From: a virus
Taxonomy: Duplodnaviria; Heunggongvirae; Uroviricota; Caudoviricetes
IMG/VR virus record: IMGVR_UViG_3300033124_000732
Strand: one strand, 5' to 3'
Length of the DNA stretch: 64,000 nt
Both the position numbers and the translations under genes were made by a program. Of the stretch, positions 2,286 through 50,148 are shown piece by piece (position 1 is the stretch's first letter; each line of letters starts with the position of its first letter). The notes under the pieces are model-generated. The model was not told the DNA's origin and did no database searches. It was given only the letters and a program-made list of their open reading frames with translations.

Positions 2286-2360
2286 TGGCCGGCCCTGAGA
2301 GGATCGAACTCCCACCACATGGTTCGAAGCCACGTATTCTATCCATTGAACTAAAGGCCG
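2286..2360 (-). tRNA. tRNA-Arg(UCG)
   Basis: Cloverleaf with T-loop GTTCGATCC, anticodon loop CTTCGAA and encoded CCA. Confidence 0.8.
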
Positions 2361-2442
2361 AAATTGGTGCTCCCAACTGGTAACGATCCAGTGTTTCTAC
2401 ATTACCAATGTAGTGTAATACCTTTATACTATGAGAGCTAAG

Positions 2443-2517
2443 TGGAGCAGGATATCGGGTTCGAACCGATGACATTCACGTTGGCAACGTGACATTCTAC
2501 CACTGAATTAATCCTGC
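2443..2517 (-). tRNA. tRNA-Gly(GCC)
   Basis: T-loop GGTTCGAACCC, anticodon loop TTGCCAA, encoded CCA. Confidence 0.85.
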
Positions 2518-2530
2518 GATCCTTTACTTA

Positions 2531-3001
2531 TTAAGCAGCTCGAAGACTTTTAAATCTATCTGCCGCGTATGATGCCGCAAATGCTTCAGGCTTCACAAAC
2601 GGAATCACATTGCATGTTCCTTTGATGTAGCCCACAGCTTGTGAGATCACACAGCTTGAACCGTACTGTTCGTCTGGGTTGATGTCCAGGTGAACTTCAA
2701 CTTGACGTCCTTCCAGCACATCGGCCAGCTTCAAATATAGTTCTGAAACCTTGTAAACTTCAGTCATCAAGCGCATGGCTGGCTTGCCTGGTTTCACGTC
2801 CCACACACGTTCGCGTTGAACTTCACCAAACAGTTTGCAACCATTGTTGCCGTTGATATGTACCACAATGGCCAACACATAGTCAGCATACCACACACCG
2901 TCAAGTTTGATTCGTTCAGAATCGCAGCCAAGGTAGATGCGAGTTTCCGGTGTTTGAGCCTGAATAAATTCTGCTACCGATGCTATGTTGAGCTTTTTCA
3001 T
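2531..3001 (-). CDS. hypothetical protein (156 aa)
   Basis: Clean minus-strand ORF between tRNAs. No motif recognised. Confidence 0.55.
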   Translation of the reverse strand: MKKLNIASVAEFIQAQTPETRIYLGCDSERIKLDGVWYADYVLAIVVHINGNNGCKLFGEVQRERVWDVKPGKPAMRLMTEVYKVSELYLKLADVLEGRQVEVHLDINPDEQYGSSCVISQAVGYIKGTCNVIPFVKPEAFAASYAADRFKSLRAA

Positions 3002-3044
3002 TTTTTACTTTCTATTTAACTCAAGAACTGTTACAGTTATATTA

Positions 3045-3124
3045 TGGTACCCTTGCTCAGATTCGAACTGAGAACATATACTCCCTTTTGAGGAGAGTGA
3101 CTTTACCAATTTGTCCACAAGGGC
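3045..3124 (-). tRNA. tRNA-Leu(CAA), type II
   Basis: 80 nt with a long variable arm. Anticodon stem CTCTC/GGGAG with loop CTCAAAA. Encoded CCA. Confidence 0.8.
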
Positions 3125-3129
3125 GTGGT

Positions 3130-3561
3130 TTAAAAATCTTCAGTTACAGCCGCAAAATCTGCAAGATCGCTTGTGTCTTCGTCGTAGCGCACACTTCCTC
3201 CGTAGTAGCCATTGTGGCTGTTACGAACTTCTATGTCTATGTACCCACGATCGGTACGTATGGTCCAAAACCCATCTTGCACAACTTCGTAGCCATCTTC
3301 GTCGTCACGATTTTCGCTCCAACCTTTGTCTTCTACGCTTACCACGGTTGCGCCGCGTAAGACATCAAACACGTCACTGTGACCAAACACAGTTTCCACA
3401 CCGTTAACGTGATTGAACCATACTGAGTTGCAACAATCGTTTTCGGTGTTAAAACGATAGTGCCGTCCGTGAATGTCGCGAAACACTAGGCTCCACCCAT
3501 CGTTACCTATCAAAAGACCATTGATGCGTTTGCCCACCAGTACATTAAATTCACTCATCAC
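3130..3561 (-). CDS. hypothetical protein (143 aa)
   Basis: ORF directly downstream of tRNA-Leu on the same strand. No motif recognised. Confidence 0.5.
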   Translation of the reverse strand: MMSEFNVLVGKRINGLLIGNDGWSLVFRDIHGRHYRFNTENDCCNSVWFNHVNGVETVFGHSDVFDVLRGATVVSVEDKGWSENRDDEDGYEVVQDGFWTIRTDRGYIDIEVRNSHNGYYGGSVRYDEDTSDLADFAAVTEDF

Positions 3562-3596
3562 AGTCTCCTTTCTTGGTTATAAGACAAATTAAAATT

Positions 3597-3673
3597 TGGT
3601 GCCCCAGAGGAGACTCGAACTCCTAAAATTTGGTTTCTAAGACCAACACGTATACCAATTCCGTCACCGGGGC
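3597..3673 (-). tRNA. tRNA with anticodon UAG (Leu-decoding), atypical type I (short variable loop)
   Basis: Perfect 5-bp anticodon stem TTGGT/ACCAA with loop CTTAGAA. Only 77 nt with a 5-nt variable loop. T-loop TTCGAGT, encoded CCA. Confidence 0.7.
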
Positions 3674-3684
3674 GTAAATACAAC

Positions 3685-3891
3685 ATGCAATCCAAACAAG
3701 ACTCCATTAAAAAAATAGAGCGTTTGCTTGCAATGGAAACATTGGGCAAAACGTTTGTGACCAAACAACAACAGTTGGCCTACGAGCGCGGATATCTAAC
3801 AGGGTTAGTGGCTACCCTAGCCTACAACGACAACTCAATCGAGCATGTTGTAAATCAACGCATCAAACAACTTACACCTAAAATTCTCTAA
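3685..3891 (+). CDS. possible small protein (68 aa) on plus strand between tRNAs
   Basis: Only plus-strand ORF in the tRNA array. No RBS or motif support. Confidence 0.2.
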   Translation: MQSKQDSIKKIERLLAMETLGKTFVTKQQQLAYERGYLTGLVATLAYNDNSIEHVVNQRIKQLTPKIL

Positions 3892-3893
3892 CT

Positions 3894-3968
3894 GGTACCA
3901 GGAGACGGGATCGAACCGCCCACACGCGGATTTTCAATCCGCTGCTCTACCGACTGAGCTATCCTGGC
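3894..3968 (-). tRNA. tRNA-Phe(GAA)
   Basis: Close match to bacterial tRNA-Phe (GCCAGGATAGCTCAGTCGGTAGAGCAG...GGATTGAAAATCC). Confidence 0.9.
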
Positions 3969-3973
3969 ATAAA

Positions 3974-4048
3974 TGGTGGGTGATGAGAGGATCGAACTCC
4001 CGACAAACTGCGTGTAAGGCAGCGACTCTACCGCTGAGCTAATCACCC
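3974..4048 (-). tRNA. tRNA-Val(UAC)
   Basis: GGGTGATTAGCTCAGCGGTAGAGT... with anticodon loop CTTACAC. Encoded CCA. Confidence 0.9.
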
Positions 4049-4053
4049 GTATA

Positions 4054-4145
4054 TGGTGGAAGTGGTGAGATTCGAACTCACGGACCCCTTTCGGAGCCGG
4101 CAGTTTTCAAGACTGCTGCCATAAACCGGACTCGGCCACACTTCC
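4054..4145 (-). tRNA. tRNA-Ser(UGA), type II
   Basis: 92 nt with a long variable arm. Anticodon loop CTTGAAA. Encoded CCA. Confidence 0.85.
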
Positions 4146-4338
4146 TAAAAAATTAAAAAAGATACTGCTTTGCGTTTAAAGGTACTGAACATCCTTTCGG
4201 GCAGCTCACATCCTTCCCGGCACATGGTTCGACTGTGACTAGCAGTCCTGAACTTAATCCCAGCGGTCCTGGATAACGTTAAGGTCCCTAGCAGTTGGGC
4301 CCATAGTCAATGAGTTTTTCACACATCTTTTCTAAACT

Positions 4339-4414
4339 TGGAGTAGGTGACAGGACTCGAACCTGCATTATACGGATTTGCAATCCGGCGCCTAGCCATT
4401 CGGCACACACCTAC
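4339..4414 (-). tRNA. tRNA-Cys(GCA)
   Basis: Anticodon stem CCGGA/TCCGG with loop TTGCAAA. T-loop GGTTCGAGTCC. Encoded CCA. Confidence 0.85.
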
Positions 4415-4415
4415 A

Positions 4416-5276
4416 TTAATACATTGAAGCTTCGTTGCTTCGATATTCATAATCATCGGGCAACACAACAGCCCGACTACGATCAATCAATTGATCAAAT
4501 CCTGCACCAGGAACGCCCATAACTCTTACCTGCCTACGCCGACTGGTAACTACTGGCACTCCGTGTAAAAAATAATCACTGCTGAGATACATCGAGTCAT
4601 CAGCAAACCGGGCAGTCTCGACGTCGTTGTCTAGTCCCCAGTACAGCGGTACTCCACCGTTGGTGATATTCAAAGTAACAACCACATAACCTTTGTGAGC
4701 CATACCGTTGTTTAAAATTGGATTAGAACCATGCGAGTACAACCGCATGCTGTCTCTGTGTATGATAGCACAACGACCTGGTTCAAGACTCACACAACTG
4801 ACCCAAACTATACGACTCAGGCACAGTTTGTTATAAATGAAGTCAATCAGTTTCAAATTTAATTTGGCAAATTCTGATTTTAACCGCCATTCTCTTTCGG
4901 GTGCAAAATTTCTAGCTGCCAGTAGACCTTTACTTCCGGCTTCTTTTAACACAGGCTCGTCACTATCGGTCACAATCATTTCAGTCATTATGGCCTGTAA
5001 CCAACTGGGGTTACCAAGATTCTGCAATGAAGTTCTATCAGTTGGGCGATCTGCCCAGCTAGGATGCAATGTACCATCTTGCTGAGTATACATGTCAGGA
5101 GGTATCATGCCCCATTGACGATTGAGTTCTGTTGTGGCATCTCTGCCTCTAGTGCTATTGTAGATAAGCCGGCTCCGGGGCATGATGTATCGATCGTATT
5201 CGTAAACAAAACGATCGCGATCATACTCCACAGTCATTGGCGCATAAGCAATATTGGCGTAAGGTGCTGTTGTCAT
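4416..5276 (-). CDS. hypothetical protein (286 aa)
   Basis: Long ORF. Start set at the second Met (5276) because the upstream extension overlaps tRNA-Pro. Confidence 0.55.
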   Translation of the reverse strand: MTTAPYANIAYAPMTVEYDRDRFVYEYDRYIMPRSRLIYNSTRGRDATTELNRQWGMIPPDMYTQQDGTLHPSWADRPTDRTSLQNLGNPSWLQAIMTEMIVTDSDEPVLKEAGSKGLLAARNFAPEREWRLKSEFAKLNLKLIDFIYNKLCLSRIVWVSCVSLEPGRCAIIHRDSMRLYSHGSNPILNNGMAHKGYVVVTLNITNGGVPLYWGLDNDVETARFADDSMYLSSDYFLHGVPVVTSRRRQVRVMGVPGAGFDQLIDRSRAVVLPDDYEYRSNEASMY

Positions 5277-5280
5277 AAAT

Positions 5281-5357
5281 TGGTCGGAGTACGAGGGTTC
5301 GAACCTCGGACCTCCTGGTCCCAAACCAGGCGCACTACCAGGCTGTGCTATACTCCG
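5281..5357 (-). tRNA. tRNA-Pro(UGG)
   Basis: CGGAGTATAGCACAGCCTGGTAGTGC... with anticodon loop TTTGGGA. Encoded CCA. Confidence 0.9.
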
Positions 5358-5363
5358 TGTGTT

Positions 5364-5582
5364 TTATTTTACTTTGGGTTCTTGACTTTTGTCAAGTTCA
5401 TGGGGTTCGGCAAATCTTGTGCCGTGACCCAAATTCCAACTGTCTGCTGTGAAAATTCTTACGGGCTTCCAGTAACGATGTATGATGTTGTTGATAGCAA
5501 CCACTGCTGCCACAATCACTACAAATCCTACTGCTGTCAAAATACTGCCAGCTAAGAATACAGCCGCTTGATCTATGTCCAT
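5364..5582 (-). CDS. small membrane protein (72 aa)
   Basis: One strongly hydrophobic segment (FLAGSILTAVGFVVIVAAVVAI). Exactly fills the gap between tRNA-Pro and tRNA-Gly. Confidence 0.4.
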   Translation of the reverse strand: MDIDQAAVFLAGSILTAVGFVVIVAAVVAINNIIHRYWKPVRIFTADSWNLGHGTRFAEPHELDKSQEPKVK

Positions 5583-5595
5583 TGTTTGTTCCTTG

Positions 5596-5669
5596 TGGAG
5601 CAGGGTAGGGGAATCGAACCCCTCGCTTTAGCTTGGAAGGCTAAGGTATTACCACTATACGAACCCTGC
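5596..5669 (-). tRNA. tRNA-Gly(UCC)
   Basis: Anticodon loop CTTCCAA. T-loop GGTTCGATTCC. Encoded CCA. Confidence 0.85.
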
Positions 5670-5717
5670 GTTAAAATACTTATTATACAACACTCAGGCA
5701 TTGTTGTAAAGATCATT

Positions 5718-5792
5718 TGGTTGCCATGGACAGTTTCGAAATGTCGACCTATCGCTTATCAAGCGATTGCTCTTCCTCTGAGCTACACGGCA
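5718..5792 (-). tRNA. tRNA-Ile(GAU)
   Basis: Anticodon stem CGC/GCG with loop TTGATAA. Slightly atypical T-arm (TTTCGAAA). Encoded CCA. Confidence 0.7.
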
Positions 5793-5798
5793 AAAACT

Positions 5799-5872
5799 TG
5801 GCACGGGTACTAGGGCTCGAACCTAGAATGACAGAGTCAAAGTCTGTAGTGTTACCATTACACTATACCCGA
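5799..5872 (-). tRNA. tRNA-Gln(UUG)
   Basis: Anticodon stem CAGA/TCTG with loop CTTTGAC. U1-U72 first pair. Encoded CCA. Confidence 0.7.
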
Positions 5873-6448
5873 ACAATTCTCATAAACATATTGAGCATAG
5901 GCCAAATGTGCGTCAAGATTAAAATGCCCCCATTCAGTGCAAGGATAACCCTGTTGTATTGACCAGTCGCAGAAATTTTTATTTACAGGCCACTTCACAG
6001 AAGCTGGCCATTCAAAACTCACAGGCCAAAAACTATCTATGTTTATGACCTTACACATGGCATTCATTGCCAGAATATTTTTTAACTTATTCAGTCGACC
6101 AGTGGTATCGTCTGTGCAATTTACCAACCATTGCTGTCTATATGCTTCAGCAGTGATAGATAAACCACCAGGCACAATAGGCTGCCAGGCACCGGAGCTC
6201 GGATCCCATACTTCACTGCGATTACAACCAGTCCAACATGCAATTACAATATCATACTCATGATGCTGTTGTTCACAAATTCTAAACATGGCATCATTTG
6301 AGCCACCTGTAATTGCACAATTGGTAGGATTGTATCCTAGCATTCTTGCCAGGTGCATGGCATAACTGTTGTTTTGATCGTCTTGACCCGGATGTGAAAT
6401 TTCATTGCCCGATGCATGACTACATCCTAAAATTAATGCTTTTTTCAT
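5858..6448 (-). CDS. GCSH-motif protein (SGNH-hydrolase-like?), paralog of 42035..42763
   Basis: 196 aa; its N-terminal LILGCSHASG matches the VNGCSHTAA motif of the 242-aa protein at 42035..42763. The 3' end overlaps the tRNA-Gln 5' end by about 15 nt. Confidence 0.55.
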   Translation of the reverse strand: MKKALILGCSHASGNEISHPGQDDQNNSYAMHLARMLGYNPTNCAITGGSNDAMFRICEQQHHEYDIVIACWTGCNRSEVWDPSSGAWQPIVPGGLSITAEAYRQQWLVNCTDDTTGRLNKLKNILAMNAMCKVINIDSFWPVSFEWPASVKWPVNKNFCDWSIQQGYPCTEWGHFNLDAHLAYAQYVYENCSGIV

Positions 6449-6461
6449 GCAATTACTTATA

Positions 6462-6536
6462 TGGTGGATGTAAGTAGAGTCGAACTACCACTTGACTCCG
6501 TATGAAGGAGGCGCACTACCATTATGCTATACATCC
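6462..6536 (-). tRNA. tRNA-Met/Ile2(CAU), elongator type
   Basis: Regular G1-C72 acceptor stem GGATGTA/TACATCC and anticodon loop TTCATAC. Encoded CCA. Confidence 0.8.
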
Positions 6537-6541
6537 ATGTT

Positions 6542-6633
6542 TGGTACCCCCACCGGGAGTCGAACCCAGATGAACCAATTATCTGTTGCTTACGGGATAT
6601 AAATCCGCCGTTTTACCATTAAACTATAGGGGC
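6542..6633 (-). tRNA. atypical 92-nt tRNA-like gene, type II length, anticodon arm unresolved
   Basis: Good acceptor stem, D-arm and T-arm (CTGGGTTCGACTCCCGG) with encoded CCA. About 40 nt between the D- and T-arms; the best anticodon stem is only 3-4 bp with loop TTTATAT or a 9-nt loop ATTTATATC. Confidence 0.45.
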
Positions 6634-6638
6634 ATGTC

Positions 6639-6713
6639 TGGGGTGTCGTATGAGAATCGAACTCATGACAGCGGAATCACAACCCGCGGTTTTGCCACTA
6701 AACTAACGTCACC
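6639..6713 (-). tRNA. tRNA-His(GUG)
   Basis: Extra G-1 pairing with C73. Anticodon stem CGGG/TCCG with loop TTGTGAT. Encoded CCA. Confidence 0.85.
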
Positions 6714-6796
6714 ATATAGGAACACACTCAGGCGTAGTAGTTCGTTAGCCCACTAAGATACACGGCTACCACCCGTGTCATTAGTTGAGTGTGTTT

Positions 6797-6873
6797 TTAT
6801 ATAATGAAATAGTGAACAGGATTTGCACCTGTGCCCACAGCCAACGACTGCACTCTACTACTAAGCTATCACC
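6797..6873 (-). other. tRNA-like remnant / structured spacer element
   Basis: Carries the same flanking motifs as neighbouring tRNAs (GTGTTTTTATAT on one side, TCACCATATAGGAACACACT on the other). T-loop is non-canonical (TGCAAAT) and the acceptor stem cannot be closed. Confidence 0.2.
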
Positions 6874-6940
6874 ATATAGGAACACACTAATTACGTATTG
6901 CCGCCTCCAGCAACAGTCGCTACTTCAATGTGTTTTTATA

Positions 6941-7015
6941 TGGTAGGGGCGCCGGGATTCGAACCCGAAATTGGCAGATTAAAAGTCTGCTGTGATACCG
7001 TTTCACCACACCCCC
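6941..7015 (-). tRNA. tRNA-Lys(UUU)
   Basis: Anticodon stem GCAGA/TCTGC with loop CTTTTAA. T-loop GGTTCGAATCC. Encoded CCA. Confidence 0.85.
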
Positions 7016-7115
7016 GGTATCTTATCACTCTTGTCACTACTCATGACAGTTCTCCTTTTGTAAAAATAAAAATAACCAGGGACCTAACTCGTCAAGGGAG
7101 AGTATGGCTATGAGT

Positions 7116-7193
7116 TGGTACCACCTGAGAGATTCGAACTCCCCGCCCCTGCGTTCGTAGCACAGTGCTCTAATCCAAATGAGCTAAGGTGGC
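7116..7193 (-). tRNA. tRNA-Arg(ACG)
   Basis: Anticodon loop CTACGAA. T-loop AGTTCGAATCT. Encoded CCA. Confidence 0.8.
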
Positions 7194-7404
7194 ATATTGA
7201 ATTTGAGAGTAGTAGCATCACTGTTATTGCTACCATTGACCCGTGTAATAAAGCCGGCCGGGAGGGTGATACGCCACTTGGGATACTTAACACACAGATT
7301 GATAACTTAGTTGTGTACGGAATCACGCCGCCCGTGCTTTACACTAGGTTGACCTTCGAAGAATCTTCCTAGCGTGTCTTTCTCTTGCTGACACTCTCAA
7401 AACT

Positions 7405-7478
7405 TGGTGCCCCACGACAGAATCGAACTGCCATCACAGGATTACAAAACCAGTGTACTACCATTGTACTAGTAGGGC
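7405..7478 (-). tRNA. tRNA-Thr(UGU) (probable)
   Basis: Clean acceptor, D- and T-arms. The anticodon arm has U-U mispairs; the best fold gives loop TTTGTAA. Confidence 0.6.
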
Positions 7479-7484
7479 GAATTG

Positions 7485-7574
7485 TGGTGGAAGACTAGGG
7501 AGTCGAACCCTATGACCCTATTACTAGAATCTACAGATTAGCAATCTGCTGCATTACCGTCCTGCCCGTCTTCC
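7485..7574 (-). tRNA. tRNA-Ser(GCU), type II
   Basis: 90 nt with a long variable arm. Anticodon stem CAGA/TCTG with loop TTGCTAA. Encoded CCA. Confidence 0.75.
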
Positions 7575-7579
7575 TGACT

Positions 7580-7655
7580 TGGCTCCCCAGCGTGGGATCG
7601 AACCACGGACACCTTGATTAACAGTCAAGTGCAACTACCGCTGTGCTACTGGGGA
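7580..7655 (-). tRNA. tRNA-Asn(GUU)
   Basis: Anticodon stem CTTGA/TCAAG with loop CTGTTAA. T-loop GGTTCGATCCC. Encoded CCA. Confidence 0.85.
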
Positions 7656-7695
7656 ATAATCTACTTAGTAGGCACTTGAGCCTACTACAAAAATA

Positions 7696-7788
7696 TGGTG
7701 GAGCAACTTGGAGTCGAACCAAGAATGTTTACCACGAGGGGACGGATTTACAGTCCGCCGATGCACACGCCATAGCATCAATTGCTCC
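7696..7788 (-). tRNA. tRNA-Tyr(GUA), type II
   Basis: 93 nt. Anticodon stem CGGA/TCCG with loop CTGTAAA. Long variable region. Encoded CCA. Confidence 0.7.
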
Positions 7789-7793
7789 ATATT

Positions 7794-7867
7794 TGGTGGA
7801 CCGAGGGAGAATCGAACTCCCAACTGAGGCTTGCAAAGCCACCGTTATCCCATTTAACTACCAGCCC
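7794..7867 (-). tRNA. tRNA-Ala(UGC)
   Basis: Anticodon loop TTTGCAA. T-loop AGTTCGATTCT. Encoded CCA. Confidence 0.75.
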
Positions 7868-7873
7868 AAATTT

Positions 7874-7947
7874 TGGCGTCCAGGGAGGGACTCGAACCCC
7901 CACAAACGGTTTTGGAGACCGTTGTGCTGCCATTACACCACCCAGAC
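7874..7947 (-). tRNA. tRNA-Trp(CCA)
   Basis: Anticodon stem ACGGT/ACCGT with loop CTCCAAA. T-loop GGTTCGAGTCC. Encoded CCA. Confidence 0.85.
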
Positions 7948-7959
7948 ATTAAATACAGC

Positions 7960-8571
7960 ATGAACATTACATTCACACCTGCGTCTAAAATTCTTTACTT
8001 TGCTGACATTCAAGATCCGCCATTTGACTGGCACACTTTGTGTCAAGCCTGCCAGGATCTCGCCTGGAATGTTGAACCCACAATTGGCAATCAAGATCAA
8101 TTTGCTGTGATGTGCTTGGCACCACACTGTGCTGCATTTGACCACCGACTCAATGCGTTTCAACAATATTTTGATGAAGATTTCAAACAACGTCTGTTGA
8201 ACCTGTTGTTTGACAACCCAGAGTTCATGATGACCTGGTGCATGCCTGACCGTAAACACTTTGACCGCATCACCAAACTCAATTGTAACTGGATAGGCAC
8301 TCCGGCCCGCTATGATCATCATCCCTGGCACCTTGACAGTCGCAATCAAGTGGCCTTTGGCATGATCTACTTTACTGAACAAGACAATCCATTGCACAGC
8401 ACTTGGTTTGACACTGGACTTTACGGCCACTTGTTGCGTGTACCTTCAGGTCCAGGACAAGGCTGGCTGGTGATCAATACCGATCAAGCTCGCCATTGCG
8501 GAATGAACAATACTGACAACATTCGCTACAGCTTCAAGTTCAGTCTTGACTTACTGACCAAACAAATCTAA
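7960..8571 (+). CDS. hypothetical protein (203 aa), plus strand
   Basis: ORF track 7873..8571, trimmed to the internal Met at 7960 because the 5' extension overlaps tRNA-Trp. No motif recognised. Confidence 0.45.
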   Translation: MNITFTPASKILYFADIQDPPFDWHTLCQACQDLAWNVEPTIGNQDQFAVMCLAPHCAAFDHRLNAFQQYFDEDFKQRLLNLLFDNPEFMMTWCMPDRKHFDRITKLNCNWIGTPARYDHHPWHLDSRNQVAFGMIYFTEQDNPLHSTWFDTGLYGHLLRVPSGPGQGWLVINTDQARHCGMNNTDNIRYSFKFSLDLLTKQI

Positions 8572-8760
8572 CACACTGTCTGCGGCATTTCAGCCCATGC
8601 CAGCTCAATGTGTGTATTAAAGCACTCTAAAATACTTAGGCTGCCTGTTCTTAAAGAACGCTTTAATACGCTCGGATTTTTTTATGTACAAGAACATAAG
8701 CCATCCCCGAGGCCGCCCATTTGTAGTTTAGAGTGATACAGGCTCGCGTTGCCGTTGCAC

Positions 8761-8792
8761 TAAATGAAAAACCCAGGGTTTTTACGCCTGGG
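8761..8792 (-). terminator. rho-independent terminator (minus strand)
   Basis: On the minus strand, stem CCCAGG/CCTGGG followed by TTTTTCATTTA, about 210 nt downstream of tRNA-fMet. Confidence 0.4.
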
Positions 8793-9001
8793 TCCTTGGG
8801 TAAGATACGGTTGTATACTACTTAGGACCCTCTGCCTCCTGGAATGCTATTCATGCGACCATAGGCGTGTGACCAAACTGGTGTCTGGGCAAACTTGGGT
8901 AGCAGTGAACAGAATTGTATTTTCATCATAAGTCCTATTGTACAGTATTTACCTTTCAAGGTCAACCACTGTGTTAAAGTTATTTAGCCTTTTGGCAAAA
9001 T

Positions 9002-9076
9002 TGGTTGCGGGAGACGGATTCGAACCGCCGATCTCTAGGTTATGAGCCTAGTGAGTTGCCGCTTCTCTATCCCGCG
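9002..9076 (-). tRNA. initiator tRNA-fMet(CAU)
   Basis: 5' CGCGGG... and 3' ...CCCGCAACCA as in E. coli tRNA-fMet. C1 opposite A72 is unpaired (the bacterial initiator hallmark). Anticodon loop CTCATAA. Confidence 0.85.
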
Positions 9077-10494
9077 ATATTTTATTTATATAGAAACACA
9101 TTCTATGCTTTGGGAATGACATTACTGTCAAGCGACCATCAACGGGTACGGAATGCGTTTGTATATAAAGTGGCGGACTGAGAATACATCCTAACCTAAT
9201 AGTGCCTCGAGCATTATTACAAACCTTGCGAGTCTGCTTTCTCTCGACTTCCACTAAGACCATATTGCTATGTATCCTAGTCCACTATCAGTATCGCCGT
9301 TTTTAAAGACAGGCAGTAGTCTTGTCATCACATGCTACTCTACACCATCTATCCCGTTGACCTTTAGAGCCATTCACTGTCGCTAAACAGTTACGAAACT
9401 TCCAGTATAAACAGATTTCACCTTGCGAGTTACGTCTGACTGTATTGCCTTGCGGCTACAGCATTAGATACTTTTCACACATGACCGAGTCAGTCTTTGC
9501 TTTTTTGTTAGATAGTGGTTATGAAGCCACAGCCTATTCCTTAACAGGGAATTGCTCTACGATGAGCTATATCAACCTACTGCGATGTGCTGACTCAGTT
9601 GCTTCATACTCTTTTGGAATACAAAATACAACACACCACGTTCCTTTTGTCTTGCGAACTACTCAGACGTCTTTTGCGATCAGTGTCGGGTCTCGGCTTT
9701 CGCGTACCTCCACCAACCACTAAAACTGCATACGAGCCCTTGGGTGCAACCCCTCGGACAAATACGCTACCCTTTCTCATACCAATTAACTGGGCTGGTT
9801 TTGTATAGAAGTCAGCACCACCTGTTACTTTCCACTGACTCCGGTTACCCTTGCGGGCCGGTAAGTCATTGTTCTTTCCTATACTCCCAGCGTCATTGTT
9901 ACAACCACCGGTCTTATCAGTGATCGGATCCTCACGGACCTGAGCAGGCTTGTTTACACGAACCATTGCTGGCGGAGTTGCGTAGGCTTACCTCCTTTGG
10001 CTGGGTCACCCCAGTTATTCTTCGTACAGCTGGGCGAACCATACTGCACAGGACAATAAACTGCCCTAAGTATCTATTGTATGACAAACGTCTTTTGTTG
10101 TCAAACTATTTTGGATAAACTGCCAAACAATCTATCCAAAATAGTTTCTATAGTCAAGCACCGAGAGCTACCCAATTTATGCGTCCTCCGCTAAGAGTGC
10201 AAAAGCCGATGGCGGTTATGTTAGGATCCGTTCCCGGCCGGTTGGACCCGAATAGTGATTGATCAGACCACGATACCCTTATCGATGCTTGACTATAAAA
10301 ACTAAAAGTTCGGATTTAAAAATCAAATCCTCCCACTGCTAACTACTGCTTCCCAATTTATCGTCCATCGGCACCCGTGGTAGGGCTTGCGATGCTCATC
10401 GGCCCTGAGTTCTAGCTCAGGTGATCCTTGGGATAGGACTGCTGGGCCTTAGCCTGCCCAGCATCAGGAAAATTAAATTCTCTGTATCGCTATG
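9077..10494. ncRNA. 1.4-kb non-coding region; candidate large structured RNA (GOLLD/ROOL-like?) next to tRNA-fMet
   Basis: No ORF above 120 aa in any frame. Higher GC than flanking genes. Numerous GC-rich hairpins (for example CCTGAG..CTCAGG, CTGGGC..GCCCAG, CCGGCCGG). Confidence 0.3.
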
Positions 10495-13703: not shown

Positions 13704-14585
13704 TTAGAACTGTACGACCAACCCGCCTGCTACTTGTCTAATATCACTGGCTGCTGAGGTTCCCTCAACATTGCGATACAGAACTTGTGCATAGGTCTTT
13801 TTGCTGAAAGCATACTCGGCACCTACGTTGTAGCTCTTGATGCCATTCTCAATGCGACCATAGCTGGCCTTCACTGTGATTGGACCACCAAGGTTGTGTG
13901 CCGCACCAACCAATTGACCACGGTTGGTATTGGCAGTTGCGCCTTTGTTGTCGCTGGCAATGCCATAAACTGTGGTTGCACCAAACTTGGCACGAGCAGC
14001 CACTACGTCACTGGTTTCTGCACCAGCTTCGTAACGAGCATAAGTTACCACTGCTGGACCCACTGCGGCAACCAATGAAGCAGCATAAGGATCGGTCGTA
14101 GCACCAGTGCTACGATCAAAACTAGCAGTCACATTGCCAAGGTTCACAGAAGTGAAAGCGGCATTACTGAAACGCAAACCACGCAGGTTATGCACGTCAG
14201 CGGCTGAGCTACCAATCAATGTGCCAAACGGATCATTGTTGCTGATGGCCAAGAAGTGAGTGTGAACGCTACGGCCTAGATCAACACTTCCCATTTTGTG
14301 AGCAATACCCACAGTGCTTTGACGATCGCCAAATGCAGTGGTGCTGGTTTCTGGGCTGTTGGCCTGGATATAGGTTTCGTATGTGGCACGAGCCTTCAAT
14401 CCGCCACCCAAGTCTTCGGTGGCACGAATGCCAAAGTGACTCAAATCATTTGCCATGCCTTGAACAGCAGCGGCTGTGCCAGTCTTGGTGTTGTCAAGGT
14501 AAGTGCCAACACGACCATAGATACCAACTTGTGCGCTTGCGACACCAGCAACTGCCAGGGTCAACGCAACTAGAACTTTCTTCAT
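13704..14585 (-). CDS. outer-membrane porin (Gram-negative general porin, Betaproteobacterial Omp32-like)
   Basis: Signal peptide MKKVLVALTLAVAGVASAQ. Alternating amphipathic beta-strand pattern, Gly/Ala/Thr-rich, C-terminal Phe (...LVVQF). Own terminator downstream. Confidence 0.75.
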   Translation of the reverse strand: MKKVLVALTLAVAGVASAQVGIYGRVGTYLDNTKTGTAAAVQGMANDLSHFGIRATEDLGGGLKARATYETYIQANSPETSTTAFGDRQSTVGIAHKMGSVDLGRSVHTHFLAISNNDPFGTLIGSSAADVHNLRGLRFSNAAFTSVNLGNVTASFDRSTGATTDPYAASLVAAVGPAVVTYARYEAGAETSDVVAARAKFGATTVYGIASDNKGATANTNRGQLVGAAHNLGGPITVKASYGRIENGIKSYNVGAEYAFSKKTYAQVLYRNVEGTSAASDIRQVAGGLVVQF

Positions 14586-14659
14586 GAATAATTTTCCTTG
14601 TTAAAATAAATGATCAAATGTCGATCATAGAGTAGTATATAGCACAAACACTAAGAATG

Positions 14660-15781
14660 TCAACTATTTTCGGTAAATTCTACAGGATTTTTAAAAGATT
14701 TAAACTGTTGTCCTGTAACTCTAGTGATATCAGCTAGTTCTTCTTCTAGTCGATGTTGGAATTCAGGTTGACAATATGGCTGATACTGATAATCTAATAA
14801 ATTTCTATAGCTGGTGCCCATGCGGTACAACAGGCGATTCTTTACATCGCCCAGTCTGCGATGCTGAGTGATTGAATTATCAAACAGCAACAAATCACCA
14901 TGTTGTGTTTTGTACCAATGATCGTACACATTATTTTCGGCAAACAGTTCAGTTTTGAGCTTGATCAACAATGCATCACTTTCCGGTTGGCTCATGCCCA
15001 CAAATCCTACCACTGTGTTTGGACTAAAATGCAAACCAGCAATTCCGCCGGGACTATTGATCCGCAACGGTAACTGATTGGGAGTTGGACAAAAGTTATG
15101 TTTGAACATGTGGTCTTGAACTAGATTCAATCCAGGATTGATTTTGCCTGGTTGGAATTCATGTTGGCAAACAAGCTCATCTAACTCACTGCGAAATGCT
15201 TCAGACTGATCTTGGTACCATCGAGCAGTGGTACTAAATCCGGTGCTACTGCCAATCACATGATCGATGGCCAACAAGCCCACGCCAGGAGTAAATGCTA
15301 GATGTCCAGATTCATTGCTGTGCCATAACAATTCTCCTTCAGCAAAAATTCCTAATCTACGACCTTGTTCATCTCGTTGTCCGCTAACTCGTTGAGCTTG
15401 TCCTGTACTAACTGGAGCACGAGTATAATCGCTTTCGGTAACAAATGACTGATCCTCAGGAGTTAGTGGATATACACCAGCCTTGAGATCTCTCCACATT
15501 TTATCAAATGCTTGATGTACTGGAAGATTGCTGTCCAGTTGTAGATTGTATTTTTTTAAAAATGTATAAGGACTAAGACTGTTACTTCTACCTAAAGCCA
15601 ACATCAATTCAGACCACCTATCTGGTGTAAGGTTGGTGCCTCTAAAAATTGTAACCAATGTGTCTAAGTGCAGTTTGCCATATACTGTTTGCCATTCTTC
15701 AATGCTGATATTTTCTAAATCAGCGCCGTCGACGAACACGCCGTAGTCACCTAAGCCGGGAATTTTTGTGATAGTTACCAT
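14660..15781 (-). CDS. TauD/TfdA-like Fe(II)/2-oxoglutarate dioxygenase (putative)
   Basis: 373 aa. The WHSNESGH...H pattern resembles the TauD-family HxD/E...H iron-binding site. Assignment from motif memory only. Confidence 0.45.
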   Translation of the reverse strand: MVTITKIPGLGDYGVFVDGADLENISIEEWQTVYGKLHLDTLVTIFRGTNLTPDRWSELMLALGRSNSLSPYTFLKKYNLQLDSNLPVHQAFDKMWRDLKAGVYPLTPEDQSFVTESDYTRAPVSTGQAQRVSGQRDEQGRRLGIFAEGELLWHSNESGHLAFTPGVGLLAIDHVIGSSTGFSTTARWYQDQSEAFRSELDELVCQHEFQPGKINPGLNLVQDHMFKHNFCPTPNQLPLRINSPGGIAGLHFSPNTVVGFVGMSQPESDALLIKLKTELFAENNVYDHWYKTQHGDLLLFDNSITQHRRLGDVKNRLLYRMGTSYRNLLDYQYQPYCQPEFQHRLEEELADITRVTGQQFKSFKNPVEFTENS

Positions 15782-16153
15782 ATGAGATACTTTTTAAGAT
15801 GTGGTAGCTTATTCTGTTACGAGGAAAGCTACCGAAACCCTAAGCAGTGTTTAGGCTGCTAATGCGAACTGTTCGTCGTTTGCGTTTACGTTTTTTGCTT
15901 CTACGGCCAGGAGACCCCAACCCTAACGGCTTCTGCTTTGCCGAGCTGTCCACTCTGTTACTCTTTGCCCTGTCGAAACTATGCAGGCCCATCAAAAACA
16001 TTTTGTAGTTAGAGCCGTTTTCATTCTAACCTTATGGTATTTGACGCATCTTTCGATGGTTACAAAATGTTTATGGTGGACCTGGGGGGATTCGCACCCC
16101 CGTCCAGAACACTTTTCTCTCGGCTTCATACAGCAATAACTTACAGTATATAT

Positions 16154-16342
16154 TTATTCTCGAGGTTTGTCAATAGCTTTGGAGATGATGTCATATACTT
16201 GGGAGTATGCATCTGTTATTTTGTCTAGCTGTTGTTCTGAAACCAAATCTGTATCTTCCAGACTAACCAAGTCCTGGGCCAGATTTTCCTGTAGTTTCTT
16301 TAGTTGATTAATCACATACCTATTTATAGAACAAACGGGCAA
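16154..16342 (-). CDS. possible small acidic protein (62 aa)
   Basis: ORF only. Its start lies inside the terminator hairpin at 16333-16353, so this is doubtful. Confidence 0.25.
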   Translation of the reverse strand: MPVCSINRYVINQLKKLQENLAQDLVSLEDTDLVSEQQLDKITDAYSQVYDIISKAIDKPRE

Positions 16343-16353
16343 AAGCCCGTTTG
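16333..16353. terminator. rho-independent terminator hairpin
   Basis: AAACGGGC-AAAA-GCCCGTTT followed by T-rich sequence, 25 nt downstream of the DctP-like gene's stop codon. Confidence 0.6.
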
Positions 16354-16377
16354 ATGTTTAGGTTGCTTGACGAGTAA

Positions 16378-17322
16378 TTAGGCGTTTTGAATCTTGCCAA
16401 CTAACCCAGCTGTAAAGGTATCTGCAAATTGCTCGTACACTTTGGCTGTTGCCTTGCGGAAAGTTTGCTCATCAGCGTCGCTAAATTTGATAACACGAAT
16501 GCCATCTTGTTCACAACGAGCTTTGGTTGGCTCAACTTCAGCCACAGCAACGGCACGTTCAAAACGACCAGCTTCTAATGCAGCTTCTTTCATGACTTCT
16601 TGCAGATTTTCAGGCAAGCTGGCCAAGAAGTTCTTGTTTACAATAATGTTGGTCAACAGCAAACGATGGTTGGGTTCTAAAATAGTTTCAGCAACTTCGT
16701 TTTGTTGGCAAGCATAGATACGTGGCCATGAGCTTTCGCCACCATCAATAGCACCATCTCGGATGCCTTCAGCCACACGCTCCACATCCATCACAACAGG
16801 ATCTGCGCCCAATGCACTCCATGTAGCAGCCGCCACTGGTGAATTTGACACACGAACTTTGACGCCAGCCATTTCGCTTAGGCTAGCAACTTCACGGTTC
16901 ATGGGCATGTTCATAAAGCCACCTGAGTATGTAAACGCCATACCTTTGATATTGCTGTTTTTGGTGTAGCCATCCAACAAGCTCTCGCCAATTTCACTTT
17001 CAAACACACGTGCCGCATGATTGTGATCACGGAACAAGAAAGGCAAATCAAGTGCGTCAAGGTCATTGTTGTACTTGCTGAGCACATAGGTATACATCTG
17101 ACTCATTTCAATGGCGCCTGAATCCATGATGTCCAACAGGTTGTGTTTGGTGATTGGTTCACCATGATTGTACTTGCTGGTGTACTCGCTCAGAGTCAGC
17201 ACTTCAATGTTGAATTGACCGGGTGCTCGGGCTTCTACTACCTCAGTAAATTTTTCAGCGGCACGAATAAAAATGTCGATAGGTTCATGGGCTAATACCC
17301 ATTTGATGTGGATAGGTTTCAT
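16378..17322 (-). CDS. TRAP-transporter DctP-family solute-binding protein homolog (no signal peptide)
   Basis: GVKVRVSNSPV...ALGADPVVMDVERVAEGIRDGAIDGGE matches the DctP consensus (LKIRV..SP...ALGA.PVPM...EVY.ALQ.GVVDG.EN). 314 aa. N-terminus is not hydrophobic. Confidence 0.6.
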   Translation of the reverse strand: MKPIHIKWVLAHEPIDIFIRAAEKFTEVVEARAPGQFNIEVLTLSEYTSKYNHGEPITKHNLLDIMDSGAIEMSQMYTYVLSKYNNDLDALDLPFLFRDHNHAARVFESEIGESLLDGYTKNSNIKGMAFTYSGGFMNMPMNREVASLSEMAGVKVRVSNSPVAAATWSALGADPVVMDVERVAEGIRDGAIDGGESSWPRIYACQQNEVAETILEPNHRLLLTNIIVNKNFLASLPENLQEVMKEAALEAGRFERAVAVAEVEPTKARCEQDGIRVIKFSDADEQTFRKATAKVYEQFADTFTAGLVGKIQNA

Positions 17323-17452
17323 AATATTTTTCCTTGAGTAATAGCTTGCATGTGTATGCTACGGTGGGCGTTCTAGGCATGTGCTAGTAAAGGGCATTGC
17401 CCAAGCGTCCAGTGTTTCCGACGTCAGCCCCTGCTGGCGTTGCTATTTTTAT

Positions 17453-18376
17453 TTAGCTTCCGCGGGCATCTTGTATTTGTTTGCTGTAGTGCTTTCTTAG
17501 TGTTTTTAAGGATTCTATGCGAGATCGGTAAAATTGCTGTGCGCTTACTCCGTCAAATACAGGACTCCGCATGTCGCTAAGGTGTTGTATTTCTTTTAAT
17601 CCCACGTCTTTTGTTGCTTGGTCAAGAATACGACCAATAGCCGCTTGTTTTTCTGCAGGCATTGACTGATGAGCCATTACAATGTTTATAACCCCGGGTA
17701 AATTTACCCCTTGTTCTTTTAAGGTAGCAACATTCATGTTATCATATCTTGTAGGGCAACTCATGCCCACCACTCTAATGTTGGGATTTTTTTCACGAAA
17801 TTGATCAATTATTGAATATCGTTCAATAGCAAAGTTTACCCCGTGATTACCTACCAAGTTTACCAGCGCATCGTAGTTGCTTTTAAATAATACTACTCGA
17901 ACTGGAACTCCAACCCGCTCGCCAATTGCCAACCCTGTTAAATGTGTGACGTTCCCTACGCCAACAGTTCCTACAGTAATTTCTTGGATGTTTTTTAAAC
18001 TGGAAATTCCCTGAGATTCGTTACCGCCTAATGTAATTACAGCCCAGCATGCTTCACCAATAGCATGAACTGGTTTCCAGTCATTTTCCTGTACTAGATT
18101 GTTTTCTACAAGCTCTACAAAAGCAGCGTTAATTATAGCCAATCGTTGTTCACTGTTCTCGCTTGCTGTCTTTAACGCAATTAGTCCTTGCGCTCCGGGT
18201 TTAAGATCAAATTGAAACCGATACTGAGATTGTGATTGGTTAGCTTTGTCGACTACTCGTTGGAAGGCTGCATTACCGCCATGACTAGCACTGTATGGTG
18301 TATACACCGTGACAGTTTCTTGCGAGTGCGCAAGGCTAGCACAGCACACTAGAATAGTAGTTAAGAGTTTTTTCAT
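17453..18376 (-). CDS. Bug/TctC-family periplasmic binding protein (1 of 3)
   Basis: Signal peptide MKKLLTTILVCCASLAHSQ. YTPYSASHGGN resembles the TctC PFxxGGxxD motif. About 307 aa. Start ATG at 18376, 2 nt after the upstream gene's stop. Confidence 0.65.
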   Translation of the reverse strand: MKKLLTTILVCCASLAHSQETVTVYTPYSASHGGNAAFQRVVDKANQSQSQYRFQFDLKPGAQGLIALKTASENSEQRLAIINAAFVELVENNLVQENDWKPVHAIGEACWAVITLGGNESQGISSLKNIQEITVGTVGVGNVTHLTGLAIGERVGVPVRVVLFKSNYDALVNLVGNHGVNFAIERYSIIDQFREKNPNIRVVGMSCPTRYDNMNVATLKEQGVNLPGVINIVMAHQSMPAEKQAAIGRILDQATKDVGLKEIQHLSDMRSPVFDGVSAQQFYRSRIESLKTLRKHYSKQIQDARGS

Positions 18377-18377
18377 G

Positions 18378-19562
18378 TTAAAATTTATAATGGTTGTTAA
18401 TACCTGAGCTTTCAAAGTCGGCTTCTCCCAGGTAATAAAAGGGCGATAAAAACCCCACAAAGCCGACTGGTTGTCCTATTTCTTTGTTAAAATATTTGTT
18501 GTCAATAGTTTTTACTAGATGTGCAAGGCCTGCTTGCCACTTGGCATACTGTGCAGTTTCTTTGAAGTTGGTGTAAAACCAATGATCCATCTCGTTGTAA
18601 AAGCTATTGGTTGGCTTGCTGGTTTGAAATGTTTCTTGATTGTACTGTGGATAGATCAAGGGTTTGATCAAGTGCTCGTATGTTGTGCGATGGGTGTAGC
18701 TGTAGTTTGGCCAACGGCACACATACTGCATGTGTTTGTTGTGCTCCAGCATAAACCAGTTCTTGACCATGTGGCATTGTTTAATAAACATTTCTGGCAA
18801 GTCAGGGGTCCAGTAAAAATATTCATTAGTCATGTTGGTGTAATCACCAAAATCGCCCATGCTATGGTTGGCCATAACATCGATAAAATAAGCGTACCAC
18901 TTTTTATCCTTGATGCATAGCTTGGGTTTGTCTACCCCGTATAAAATACAAATACGTTGACCAGTGTCTGCTAGTTTTTTGTGGCCTTCGTAACCAGTTG
19001 CTGAATGTTTGAATGCATGTCCAGGTTGGAAATAATCTTTAGTTTTCATGACCCAAGACTCGTCATACACTTGAGTTAGCATGTTTTCACTATAGTCGTG
19101 CGTGGTAATTTTTGTGCGCGGCGACGCAGTAGTTAACCAGTCCAGCACAGGATACGCTGCATACTTTGCTTCGCTTAGAGTGTTCTCAGGTTTACAGTTA
19201 AACGGATCATCGCTAACATTTTTTTCACCAGTCTTAGGATAACGAAACACAACTTCATCAAGGTGTATGCCGTTGTTGATAAAACTATACAATGCAGTAG
19301 TTGAATCTCCCCCGCCAGAAAATTCTAAACGAATATAATCGTACTTGTCTCGTAATTGTTGCGCACGAATTCGATACAGATCTAGGATATTGATATTGGG
19401 TTCAACCAACCAATTTTCAGCGCCAAATACTTCATTGTTGAAATTCCATTCGGGGAATTGATTAGTTTCAGTAGCCTTAGTCAGTGCCATTGGTTTACTG
19501 TAAAATTTTTCTTGTCCCACAGTGTAGTATCCTAATTTGGGATTTTGTTCAATTTTTATCAT
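18378..19562 (-). CDS. PP-loop ATP pyrophosphatase-family protein, paralog A (394 aa)
   Basis: SGGGDS PP-loop motif (LEFSGGGDSTTAL) preceded by YRIRAQQLRDKYDY. Paralogous to 19564..20712 and 24959..26119. Confidence 0.7.
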   Translation of the reverse strand: MIKIEQNPKLGYYTVGQEKFYSKPMALTKATETNQFPEWNFNNEVFGAENWLVEPNINILDLYRIRAQQLRDKYDYIRLEFSGGGDSTTALYSFINNGIHLDEVVFRYPKTGEKNVSDDPFNCKPENTLSEAKYAAYPVLDWLTTASPRTKITTHDYSENMLTQVYDESWVMKTKDYFQPGHAFKHSATGYEGHKKLADTGQRICILYGVDKPKLCIKDKKWYAYFIDVMANHSMGDFGDYTNMTNEYFYWTPDLPEMFIKQCHMVKNWFMLEHNKHMQYVCRWPNYSYTHRTTYEHLIKPLIYPQYNQETFQTSKPTNSFYNEMDHWFYTNFKETAQYAKWQAGLAHLVKTIDNKYFNKEIGQPVGFVGFLSPFYYLGEADFESSGINNHYKF

Positions 19563-19563
19563 G

Positions 19564-21643: not shown

Positions 21644-21676
21644 AGTACTCTGGTTTGTTGTTGTTTTCAAATTGAA

Positions 21677-26639: not shown

Positions 26640-26725
26640 TGGTACCAGAGACGGGTATCGAACCCGTATGCCCTTTCAAGCGGCAGATTTTAAGTCTGCT
26701 GTGTATACCATTCCACCACTCTGGC
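26640..26725 (-). tRNA. tRNA-Leu(UAA), type II
   Basis: 86 nt. Anticodon stem GCAGA/TCTGC with loop CTTAAAA. Long variable arm. Encoded CCA. Confidence 0.85.
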
Positions 26726-50131: not shown

Positions 50132-50148
50132 GATTTTTCCTTGTTATA

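Follow-up and report, generated by a model that had tools for sequence, protein, structure and literature searches.

The 77-nt gene on the minus strand at positions 3597–3673 of the window (the whole 64,000-nt stretch of viral DNA analysed here) is a genuine gene for a leucine tRNA, one without the long extra arm. Natural class I tRNA-Leu of this kind has been described biochemically in Streptomyces, and the gene is an ordinary member of a common phage family of 77-nt tRNA-Leu(UAG) genes. Its cloverleaf is under purifying selection, the body of the tRNA is of the Leu type with the identity elements retained, and CUN codons mean leucine in this genome. The tRNA is most likely the phage's only decoder of the CUN box, charged with leucine by the host LeuRS. 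Because it belongs to a common phage family and is still Leu-like, the gene is unusual only when set against the textbook rule for this isotype.

A class I tRNA-Leu(UAG) gene in a phage tRNA array

ARAGORN called the minus-strand gene at 3597–3673 as tRNA-Leu(tag), 77 nt long, with the anticodon at position 35. The Rfam model RF00005 matched 3600–3673 with 61.2 bits, where the gathering score is 29 (E ~1e-12). This match was full-length (model positions 1–71), all of its posteriors were maximal and its register was that of ARAGORN. The minimum free energy (MFE) structure of the 77-mer, computed with ViennaRNA, was the exact cloverleaf. Read from the minus strand, the tRNA is GCCCCGG UG ACG-GAAUUGGUAUA-CGU G UUGGU CUUAGAA ACCAA AUUUU AGGAG UUCGAGU CUCCU CUGGGGC A CCA, and its D-loop runs G13 A14 A15 U16 U17 G18 G19 U A U A22. 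The features are collected in Table 1.

The gene has the properties expected of a tRNA, namely the cloverleaf, a 7-nt anticodon loop, a T-loop that fits UUCRANY and an Rfam score that exceeds the gathering threshold. Class II tRNAs are defined by a variable arm that contains a stem and exceeds 10 nt; the variable loop of this gene is 5 nt. The sequence-only reading had described an anticodon stem UUGGU/ACCAA with the loop CUUAGAA and the anticodon UAG, and the sequence, ARAGORN and Rfam all agree with this description. The 5-nt variable loop and the 77-nt type I shape that it had reported were likewise confirmed by the Rfam alignment and by the ViennaRNA fold. Misassignment of the anticodon loop was ruled out, as ARAGORN, the Rfam covariance model and the MFE fold all gave one register.

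Table 1. Coordinates of the tRNA-Leu(UAG) gene, its parts and its neighbours in the window
Feature	Position	Strand	Description
tRNA-Leu(UAG) gene, class I	3597..3673	(-)	77 nt, 5-nt variable loop, encoded CCA
Acceptor stem, 5′ strand GCCCCGG	3667..3673	(-)	pairs with 3601-3607 (CUGGGGC); a single wobble, G6-U67
U8 G9 and Leu-type D-arm	3648..3666	(-)	3-bp stem ACG/CGU
Anticodon arm UUGGU-CUUAGAA-ACCAA	3630..3646	(-)	anticodon UAG at 3637-3639; position 37 is A, not G
Variable loop AUUUU, positions 44-48	3625..3629	(-)	U48 partners A15
T-arm AGGAG-UUCGAGU-CUCCU	3608..3624	(-)	4/5 pairs with compensatory changes
Discriminator A73 (3600) and encoded CCA (3597-3599)	3597..3600	(-)	from the sequence
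Co-oriented tRNA array holding tRNA-Leu(UAG)	2286..9076	(-)	25/30 of the window's tRNA genes
tRNA-Leu(CAA)	3045..3124	(-)	80 nt, intermediate 8-nt variable region; best isotype model short Leu
tRNA-Leu(UAA)	26640..26725	(-)	86 nt, canonical class II, long variable arm; best isotype model long Leu, 60.1 bits
DUF7448 protein ORF	3130-3561		flanks tRNA-Leu(UAG)
RNaseH-like protein ORF	2531-3001		flanks tRNA-Leu(UAG)

In all, ARAGORN found 30 tRNA genes in the window, along with a tmRNA. The phage-encoded tRNA set covers all 20 amino acids, with one U34-type decoder per family box, and UAG is the sole CUN decoder that ARAGORN found in the window. The other two leucine tRNAs, Leu(CAA) and Leu(UAA), had both been read as type II. 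This held for the 86-nt Leu(UAA) and failed for Leu(CAA), which is 80 nt long and has an 8-nt variable region. This part of the array has a good sigma-70-like promoter match on its upstream side, at 5395–5366. Promoter-like sites in the window were no more frequent than in shuffled sequence, and for this reason co-transcription of the array is something that we only infer.

Selection on the cloverleaf

Covariation was counted on 56 distinct 77-mers of the family. In these relatives, 99.4% of the stem cells were paired, and 19 of the 20 pairs had changes on both sides; in the acceptor stem all seven pairs showed compensatory changes across the family. None of 500 shuffles attained any of five covariation measures, and pairing fell to 34–50% when the 3′ partners were slid by 1–3 columns. 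Since the gene also stands within a 31-gene tRNA set, the tRNA at 3597–3673 is not a chance resemblance.

The unpaired positions were also strongly conserved. A73 and the CCA end were invariant in 56 of 56 family members, and neither was part of any search pattern. U8, A14, G18 and G19 were invariant in the family, and the nucleotides of the T-loop and of the tertiary pairs were invariant across dozens of divergent phages. The invariance of A37 across the family was dropped from consideration, as this base had been fixed in all three search patterns. For the same reason, conservation of the variable loop was taken solely from the scan in which the variable loop was left unspecified, where U48 was present in 50 of 50 sequences. 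Conservation of the D-arm was taken solely from the scan in which the D-arm was left unspecified; here U8, R9, a covarying 3-bp stem and the loop G13 A14 A15 Y U G18 G19 N A N A were kept. The 26:44 pair covaried, being either G·A (50) or A·G (20). The tRNA was ∼95% identical in distant relatives of the window phage, compared with ∼72% for the neighbouring ORFs.

Leucine identity of the tRNA body

The isotype HMMs used here were home-made from ∼1,900 phage tRNAs, labelled by anticodon and with the anticodon masked, and are not the curated tRNAscan-SE models. With its anticodon masked, the window tRNA scored 71.8 bits against the short Leu model (its own family) and 33.9 bits against the long Leu model, with Trp next at 23.8 bits. 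For 29 of the 30 window tRNAs, the same test gave the isotype that the anticodon indicates. The sole exception was one Met(CAT), for which Lys (43.7) was narrowly above Met (42.2).

The A15:U48 pair was found in 161 of 163 short Leu tRNAs and in 78 of 79 long Leu tRNAs (99%), compared with 8–73% in other isotypes. Residue N73 was A in 163 of 163 short Leu tRNAs, and A in all Leu tRNAs. The register of the D-arm was identical to that of class II Leu tRNAs, both T5 Leu(UAG) and the window's own Leu(UAA). The window tRNA therefore has the features of a bacterial-type tRNA-Leu: A73; U8-A14, A15-U48 and G18G19 in a Leu-specific D-loop with a 3-bp D-stem; and a Leu-like masked body. The discriminator and the D-loop were the places to which the sequence-only reading had pointed, and all of these elements proved to be present and conserved in the family. 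That reading had offered two possibilities for the tRNA. One, a minimal Leu isoacceptor predicted to be charged by virtue of A73 and its tertiary identity elements, is supported by the retained core and the masked-body HMM. The other, a tRNA of altered identity, found no support, as the masked body scores as Leu and the CUN and CUA sites described below are enriched in leucine as the UUR sites are.

CUN-reading Leu tRNAs of bacteria normally carry G37, the m1G37 site of TrmD. The window tRNA departs from this pattern, having A at position 37, and the window's Pro(UGG) has G37. A37 was also present in Leu tRNAs of T5, TrudiRoth, GAP31, Vibrio X1 and Xanthomonas X1. Because the class II Leu(UAG) of T5 has A37 as well, A37 is a trait of phage Leu tRNAs rather than a class I trait. 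A switch of identity, as in the tRNA-Ser(CAG) of CUG-clade yeasts or the tRNA-ProX types of Streptomyces, would combine the body and identity elements of one amino acid with the anticodon of another at a codon that is not conserved as its standard amino acid, and this combination was not what we found. The window tRNA has no G3:U70 and no long arm; therefore it would not recruit AlaRS or SerRS, which charge irrespective of the anticodon.

CUN codons mean leucine

Codons were counted in 59 non-overlapping ORFs of the window. CUN accounted for 675 of 1338 Leu codons (50%), and CUA for 12%. The MetK of the window was then compared with 121 diverse 50%-cluster representatives, which were used in place of the phage copies at 86–97% identity; the latter were left out of the codon test because they are not independent. 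The Leu fraction was 0.40 for CUN, 0.47 for CUA and 0.39 for UUR sites, and the background Leu frequency in this comparison was 0.07. In the best PDB homologues of MetK, FolE and GalE, leucine was aligned at 6 of 8 CUA, 16 of 28 CUN and 14 of 26 UUR sites. There was no sign of codon reassignment in the CUN and CUA site comparison for MetK, FolE and GalE, a test that concerns the meaning of CUN in genes and not which tRNA reads CUN, because host tRNAs are present too.

A common family of phage tRNAs

A BLAST search of 50,697 phage records with the 77-mer gave matches in at least 92 of them, mostly annotated as tRNA-Leu. The matched phages included Seunavirus (GAP31, PVP-SE1 and 4MG), Aeromonas phages and Xanthomonas phages, together with T5-like Demerecviridae (TrudiRoth, Providencia PR1, Proteus phages and Vibrio X1). 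ARAGORN verified a 77-nt Leu(UAG) in GAP31, TrudiRoth and Vibrio X1, and also found 77-nt genes for Leu(UAA) in Vibrio X1 and for Leu(CAG) in Xanthomonas X1. The window gene was 74–86% identical to the GenBank phage genes, which share its length, register, D-arm GGAAUUGGUAUAC, A/GUUUU variable loop, A73 and CCA. The phages themselves are unrelated to the window phage at the level of the genome, and their acceptor and anticodon stems differ from those of the window gene by compensatory changes.

The 77-nt tRNA-Leu(UAG) was present on well over 100 IMG/VR contigs. A scan with the D-arm fixed found at least 111 77-nt Leu(UAG) genes (111 of 119 among the matches listed), and a scan with the anticodon loop, variable loop and T-loop fixed found at least 121 77-nt genes (121 of 143 among the matches listed). 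At 46 IMG/VR loci the tRNA was only 1–3 mismatches from that of the window. The window gene shows each of the features that mark the family: the UAG anticodon, the GGAAUUGGUAUAC D-arm, an RUUYU variable loop, A73-CCA and a place within a phage tRNA array.

Genes of the family are already annotated as tRNA-Leu in many GenBank genomes; a full-text literature search found no paper that describes a family of class I tRNA-Leu in phages. No match to the gene, prophage copies included, turned up in any of 5,426 complete E. coli genomes; as regards coliphages, it is therefore a gene of the phages alone.

Class I and class II genes at equivalent positions

In T5, an 85-nt class II Leu(UAG) gene adjoins tRNA-Ala(UGC), and the Leu(UAG) genes of TrudiRoth and GAP31 have the same position beside this tRNA. 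In TrudiRoth, a 97%-identical Ala gene stands at the equivalent place, beside a divergent 77-nt class I Leu(UAG) gene that resembles the Seunavirus gene. The T5 tRNA has the same anticodon as the window tRNA and shares its A37, Leu-type D-arm, A73 and CCA. Unlike the class I family, it keeps a 13-nt variable arm, and its sequence is divergent outside the conserved core. A simple deletion in place from a T5-like class II gene was ruled out, as the Leu genes are divergent beside Ala genes that are 97% identical; the class I gene has therefore replaced the class II gene rather than being derived from it. On this evidence, class I genes spread and take the place of class II genes, as opposed to arising by recent deletion in each lineage. 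The database record of T5 Leu(UAG) states that a change of its anticodon makes an amber suppressor.

Loss of the long arm is a property of leucine tRNAs

At the loci that hold a short Leu(UAG), the Ser tRNAs were long in 165 cases and short in 4, and the Tyr tRNAs long in 73 and short in 5. The corresponding values were 5 long and 44 short for Leu(CAA), and 65 long and 31 short for Leu(UAA); because every locus had been chosen for its short Leu(UAG), these proportions do not serve as estimates for a population. SerRS and TyrRS of bacteria use the long arm. That only Leu tRNAs lose the arm, with Ser and Tyr keeping it, fits a bacterial LeuRS that does not use the arm as an identity element. The restriction of this rule-breaking to Leu, and its absence for Ser and Tyr, is a natural experiment confirming that bacterial LeuRS needs no arm. 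Minimalist E. coli RNAs are reportedly arm-less LeuRS substrates as well, in work by Larkin et al. from 2002.

The published biochemistry is in line with this. In E. coli, the Leu identity set comprises A73, A14, A15-U48 and the tertiary contacts of G18G19 with the T-loop (PMC6614811), and the class II arm is a structural hallmark rather than an identity element (PMC2377443, PMC6614811). For Aquifex LeuRS the variable stem-loop holds no identity element: removal of the arm from tRNA-Leu mainly lowers affinity, and deletion of U48 abolishes charging (PMC2377443). The Aquifex and E. coli substrates show that bacterial LeuRS can charge an arm-less tRNA-Leu if A73, the core formed by the D- and T-loops and U48 are intact, all of which are kept in the phage tRNA. 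They are laboratory constructs with reduced affinity, whereas the phage family is natural and under selection.

The closest natural parallel is the type I tRNA-Leu(CAA) of S. coelicolor, which is leucylated by its own LeuRS and whose minimal loop is five nucleotides with position 48 included (PMC6614811). Like the window gene, it has a 5-nt variable loop and coexists with class II Leu isoacceptors (PMC6614811); in the window, the class II isoacceptor is Leu(UAA), and nucleotide 48 is likewise part of the 5-nt loop. A single LeuRS serves both type I and class II tRNA-Leu in S. coelicolor (Fan et al. 2019, PMC6614811). The two tRNAs differ in that the S. coelicolor tRNA is the product of a cellular gene with the anticodon CAA, the loop ACAGC and C48, whereas the window tRNA is encoded by a phage and has UAG, AUUUU and U48. 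A73 is also not an identity element for the S. coelicolor enzyme, ScoLeuRS (PMC6614811). The type I tRNA-Leu(CAA) was not leucylated in vitro by E. coli LeuRS (PMC6614811), and arm-less Leu tRNAs are therefore not automatic substrates of a proteobacterial LeuRS. There is thus a tension between the class I Leu(UAG) genes carried by coliphages and the reported rejection, by E. coli LeuRS, of the sole natural bacterial class I tRNA-Leu examined. The presence of C48 in the S. coelicolor tRNA, compared with U48 in the phage tRNA, may bear on the failure of the E. coli enzyme.

In a scan of one genome per GTDB species, class I Leu tRNAs were found at 61 loci. Some of these loci were evidently on phage-like contigs inside MAGs, and others were cellular. 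In the complete chromosome of Tumebacillus avium, a 77-nt Leu(CAA) lies in a tRNA cluster directly downstream of the 23S and 5S rRNA genes. The statement that bacterial tRNA-Leu is always type II, on which the sequence-only reading had relied, is contradicted by this gene, by the GTDB scan and by S. coelicolor (PMC6614811). Phage tRNA arrays therefore break the textbook class II rule for tRNA-Leu in bacterial systems as a matter of routine, and cellular rRNA operons do so on occasion; annotation pipelines and isotype classifiers should expect class I tRNA-Leu in phages. The tRNA-Leu of animal mitochondria resembles the window tRNA in being class I with A73 (PMC6614811). It is served by a dedicated mitochondrial LeuRS, with the size of the anticodon arm playing a part in recognition, and it has no sequence relationship to the window gene.

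Proposed function and alternative explanations

We propose that tRNA-Leu(UAG) would be transcribed with the surrounding tRNA array on the minus strand and then processed. No addition of CCA would be needed, because CCA is encoded. A host LeuRS of the bacterial type would leucylate the tRNA by reading A73 and the shape of the core (U8-A14, the A15-U48 Levitt pair, G18G19 in the Leu-specific D-loop and the 3-bp D-stem), and would read neither the anticodon nor a long arm as an identity element. The charged tRNA would decode the CUN box with U34-A35-G36, with the modification of U34 and the breadth of wobble being presumed. Among the 58 window ORFs scanned against Pfam, there was no LeuRS or other aminoacyl-tRNA synthetase, tRNA nuclease, RNA ligase or CCA-adding enzyme. 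We consider it highly probable that the gene encodes a functional leucine tRNA which has lost its long variable arm and which serves as a CUN-box decoder charged by the host LeuRS, with leucylation predicted from the retained identity elements. On its own the window gene matters little, and most likely it simply supplies CUN decoding.

The loss of the arm could instead be adaptive, allowing the Leu tRNA to escape a tRNA nuclease or binding factor, from the host, a competitor or a phage, that recognises the arm; the CUN (and UUR) boxes would then stay readable while class II host tRNA-Leu is destroyed. Evasion of tRNA-cleaving defences by phage tRNAs is documented for other isotypes (PMC10264068, PMC11464382), and human SLFN11 cleaves type II tRNAs, according to a title cited in PMC13056530. 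A corollary of such escape is that proteobacterial LeuRS charges the phage class I tRNAs, presumably through A15-U48 and the E. coli-type D-loop. However, no bacterial nuclease is known to recognise the Leu variable arm, and none was among the window ORFs scanned against Pfam. Among the tRNA-rich virulent phages of many Gram-negative hosts, Leu(UAG) is predominantly arm-less, and this form is absent from the E. coli genomes searched, as escape would lead one to expect. Yet arm-less Leu(CAA) also occurs in Streptomyces (PMC6614811) and in an ordinary operon of rRNA and tRNA genes in Tumebacillus avium, and neither case requires a conflict with phages. Similarly, the contrast between the class II gene of T5 and the class I gene of TrudiRoth, beside nearly identical Ala genes, points to replacement and not drift, but the intermediate lengths (the 8-nt loop of the window's Leu(CAA) and forms of 78–81 nt elsewhere) look like relaxed constraint. 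The retention of the arms in Ser and Tyr tRNAs is what a simpler account based on synthetase constraint predicts, and we regard adaptive escape as unlikely.

Two further explanations would deny that the tRNA delivers leucine, and both are very improbable. In one, the tRNA would be charged with another amino acid, so that in the infected cell CUN or CUA is either recoded or mistranslated on purpose. A class I shape is not typical of a bacterial Leu tRNA and A37, in place of G37, is atypical among CUN-reading Leu tRNAs, but the model that scored second-best on the masked Leu body was that of canonical long-arm Leu, and A73 and A15-U48 are kept at 99–100%. AlaRS uses G3:U70 and SerRS uses the long arm; C3-G70 excludes Ala identity, there is no long arm for SerRS, and the remaining synthetases require anticodon bases that are absent from UAG. 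The failure of E. coli LeuRS to charge a foreign type I tRNA-Leu (PMC6614811) could be taken to favour altered charging, but at conserved sites CUA and CUN are as enriched in leucine as UUR. Equally improbable is that the gene is a pseudogene, a decoy, or a signal for integration or processing, in other words a tRNA-like element that has decayed or has no part in translation and is not aminoacylated. The folding z-score of the single sequence is indeed unremarkable (−1.14). This has to be set against the compensatory changes in nearly all stem pairs, the invariance of A73, CCA, the T-loop and the tertiary nucleotides, and the far better conservation of the tRNA than of its flanks, and the gene fills the sole CUN slot of an otherwise complete set of decoders.

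The window phage and its host

The window comes from a large phage of a freshwater lineage. Its MetK has relatives at 86–97% identity on metagenomic contigs, the longest of which reaches 353 kb. No close relative of the window phage was found in GenBank, where the only matches were tRNA-sized and a radical-SAM protein gave only weak matches. Besides the tRNA array, the window encodes a GOLLD RNA and a permuted tmRNA. Its auxiliary genes include those for a Gram-negative porin, DctP, two TctC proteins, TauD, MetK and FolE, as well as a QueD-like protein, a YhhQ-like protein and several B12/radical-SAM enzymes. The porin, TctC, DctP and the beta_tmRNA matches hint at a Gram-negative host, perhaps a betaproteobacterium.

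Anticodon loops and variable regions of phage tRNAs

Bacterial Leu tRNAs that read CUN codons usually carry a guanine at position 37 (m1G37). Within the anticodon loop of the window tRNA-Leu(UAG) (3637–3641, minus strand), position 37 is an adenine rather than a guanine. A37 is also present in the Leu tRNAs of phages T5, TrudiRoth, GAP31, Vibrio X1 and Xanthomonas X1. In the window tRNA-Pro(UGG), G37 is retained.

The length of its variable region gives the window tRNA-Ile(UAU) the look of a class II tRNA; when the anticodon was masked, the tRNA body scored as Ile. Therefore, the same phage has a long arm on an Ile tRNA and none on a Leu tRNA. Genes for Ile(UAU) of 90–95 nt were also found in four phage-like loci (L179, L183, L194 and L200). 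The variable region of the window tRNA-Leu(CAA) fits neither class I nor class II; the related phage loci often carry Leu(CAA) genes of 77–78 nt.

Location of tRNAs, structured RNAs and auxiliary genes
Feature	Location	Strand	Description
tRNA-Leu(CAA)	window 3045–3124	−	80 nt, 8-nt variable region (UAUAUGUU)
tRNA-Ile(UAU)	window 6542–6633	−	92 nt, variable region ∼21 nt
GOLLD RNA	window 9175–9639	−	full-length, 203.8 bits
Permuted tmRNA	window 15760–16166	−	two-piece type, phage-encoded, tag peptide ANDEQFALAA
Auxiliary genes	window 13704–24268 and 43629–55963	−	host-like, densely packed
Class I tRNA-Leu(CAA)	L182:3188–3261		77 nt, Tumebacillus avium chromosome NZ_CP021434.1

Relative to its T5 counterpart, the tRNA-Ala(UGC) of Escherichia phage TrudiRoth (L003:203–278) has a one-base insertion that produces an 8-nt anticodon loop, for which ARAGORN reported the four-base anticodon ‘tgca’. 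The annotated tRNA-His(GUG) of Xanthomonas phage X1 (L002:389–465) is 77 nt long, has a Leu-type D-arm (GUGUCGGAAUUGGUAGACGAG) and directly adjoins the class I Leu(CAG), which suggests a Leu-derived scaffold bearing a His anticodon.

Class I tRNA-Leu genes in bacterial genomes

The class I Leu(CAA) of T. avium lies in a tRNA cluster immediately downstream of 23S and 5S rRNA, with more copies at two other chromosomal loci (L176 and L230). This is a cellular arm-less tRNA-Leu beyond Streptomyces. Flavobacteriaceae genomes (L181, L189, L192, L201, L232 and others) have chromosomal arrays of 12–17 tRNAs with no encoded CCA, in which a 75-nt Leu(UAG) gene is paired with a Leu(UAA) gene of the same length, both of class I.

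Other structured RNAs and auxiliary genes

Just past the tRNA array of the window is a GOLLD RNA, which contains a tRNA-like element (9506–9576). The tmRNA also fits the betaproteobacterial tmRNA model, possibly a hint of the host.

The auxiliary genes encode a Gram-negative porin, two receptors of the TctC/Bug type, the solute-binding protein DctP and a YhhQ-like transporter, together with TauD, MetK, GTP cyclohydrolase I and a QueD-like PTPS. They also encode sugar enzymes that resemble GalE and DegT, as well as five or more radical-SAM/B12 proteins. This combination suggests a 7-deazaguanine pathway together with sugar-modification pathways.
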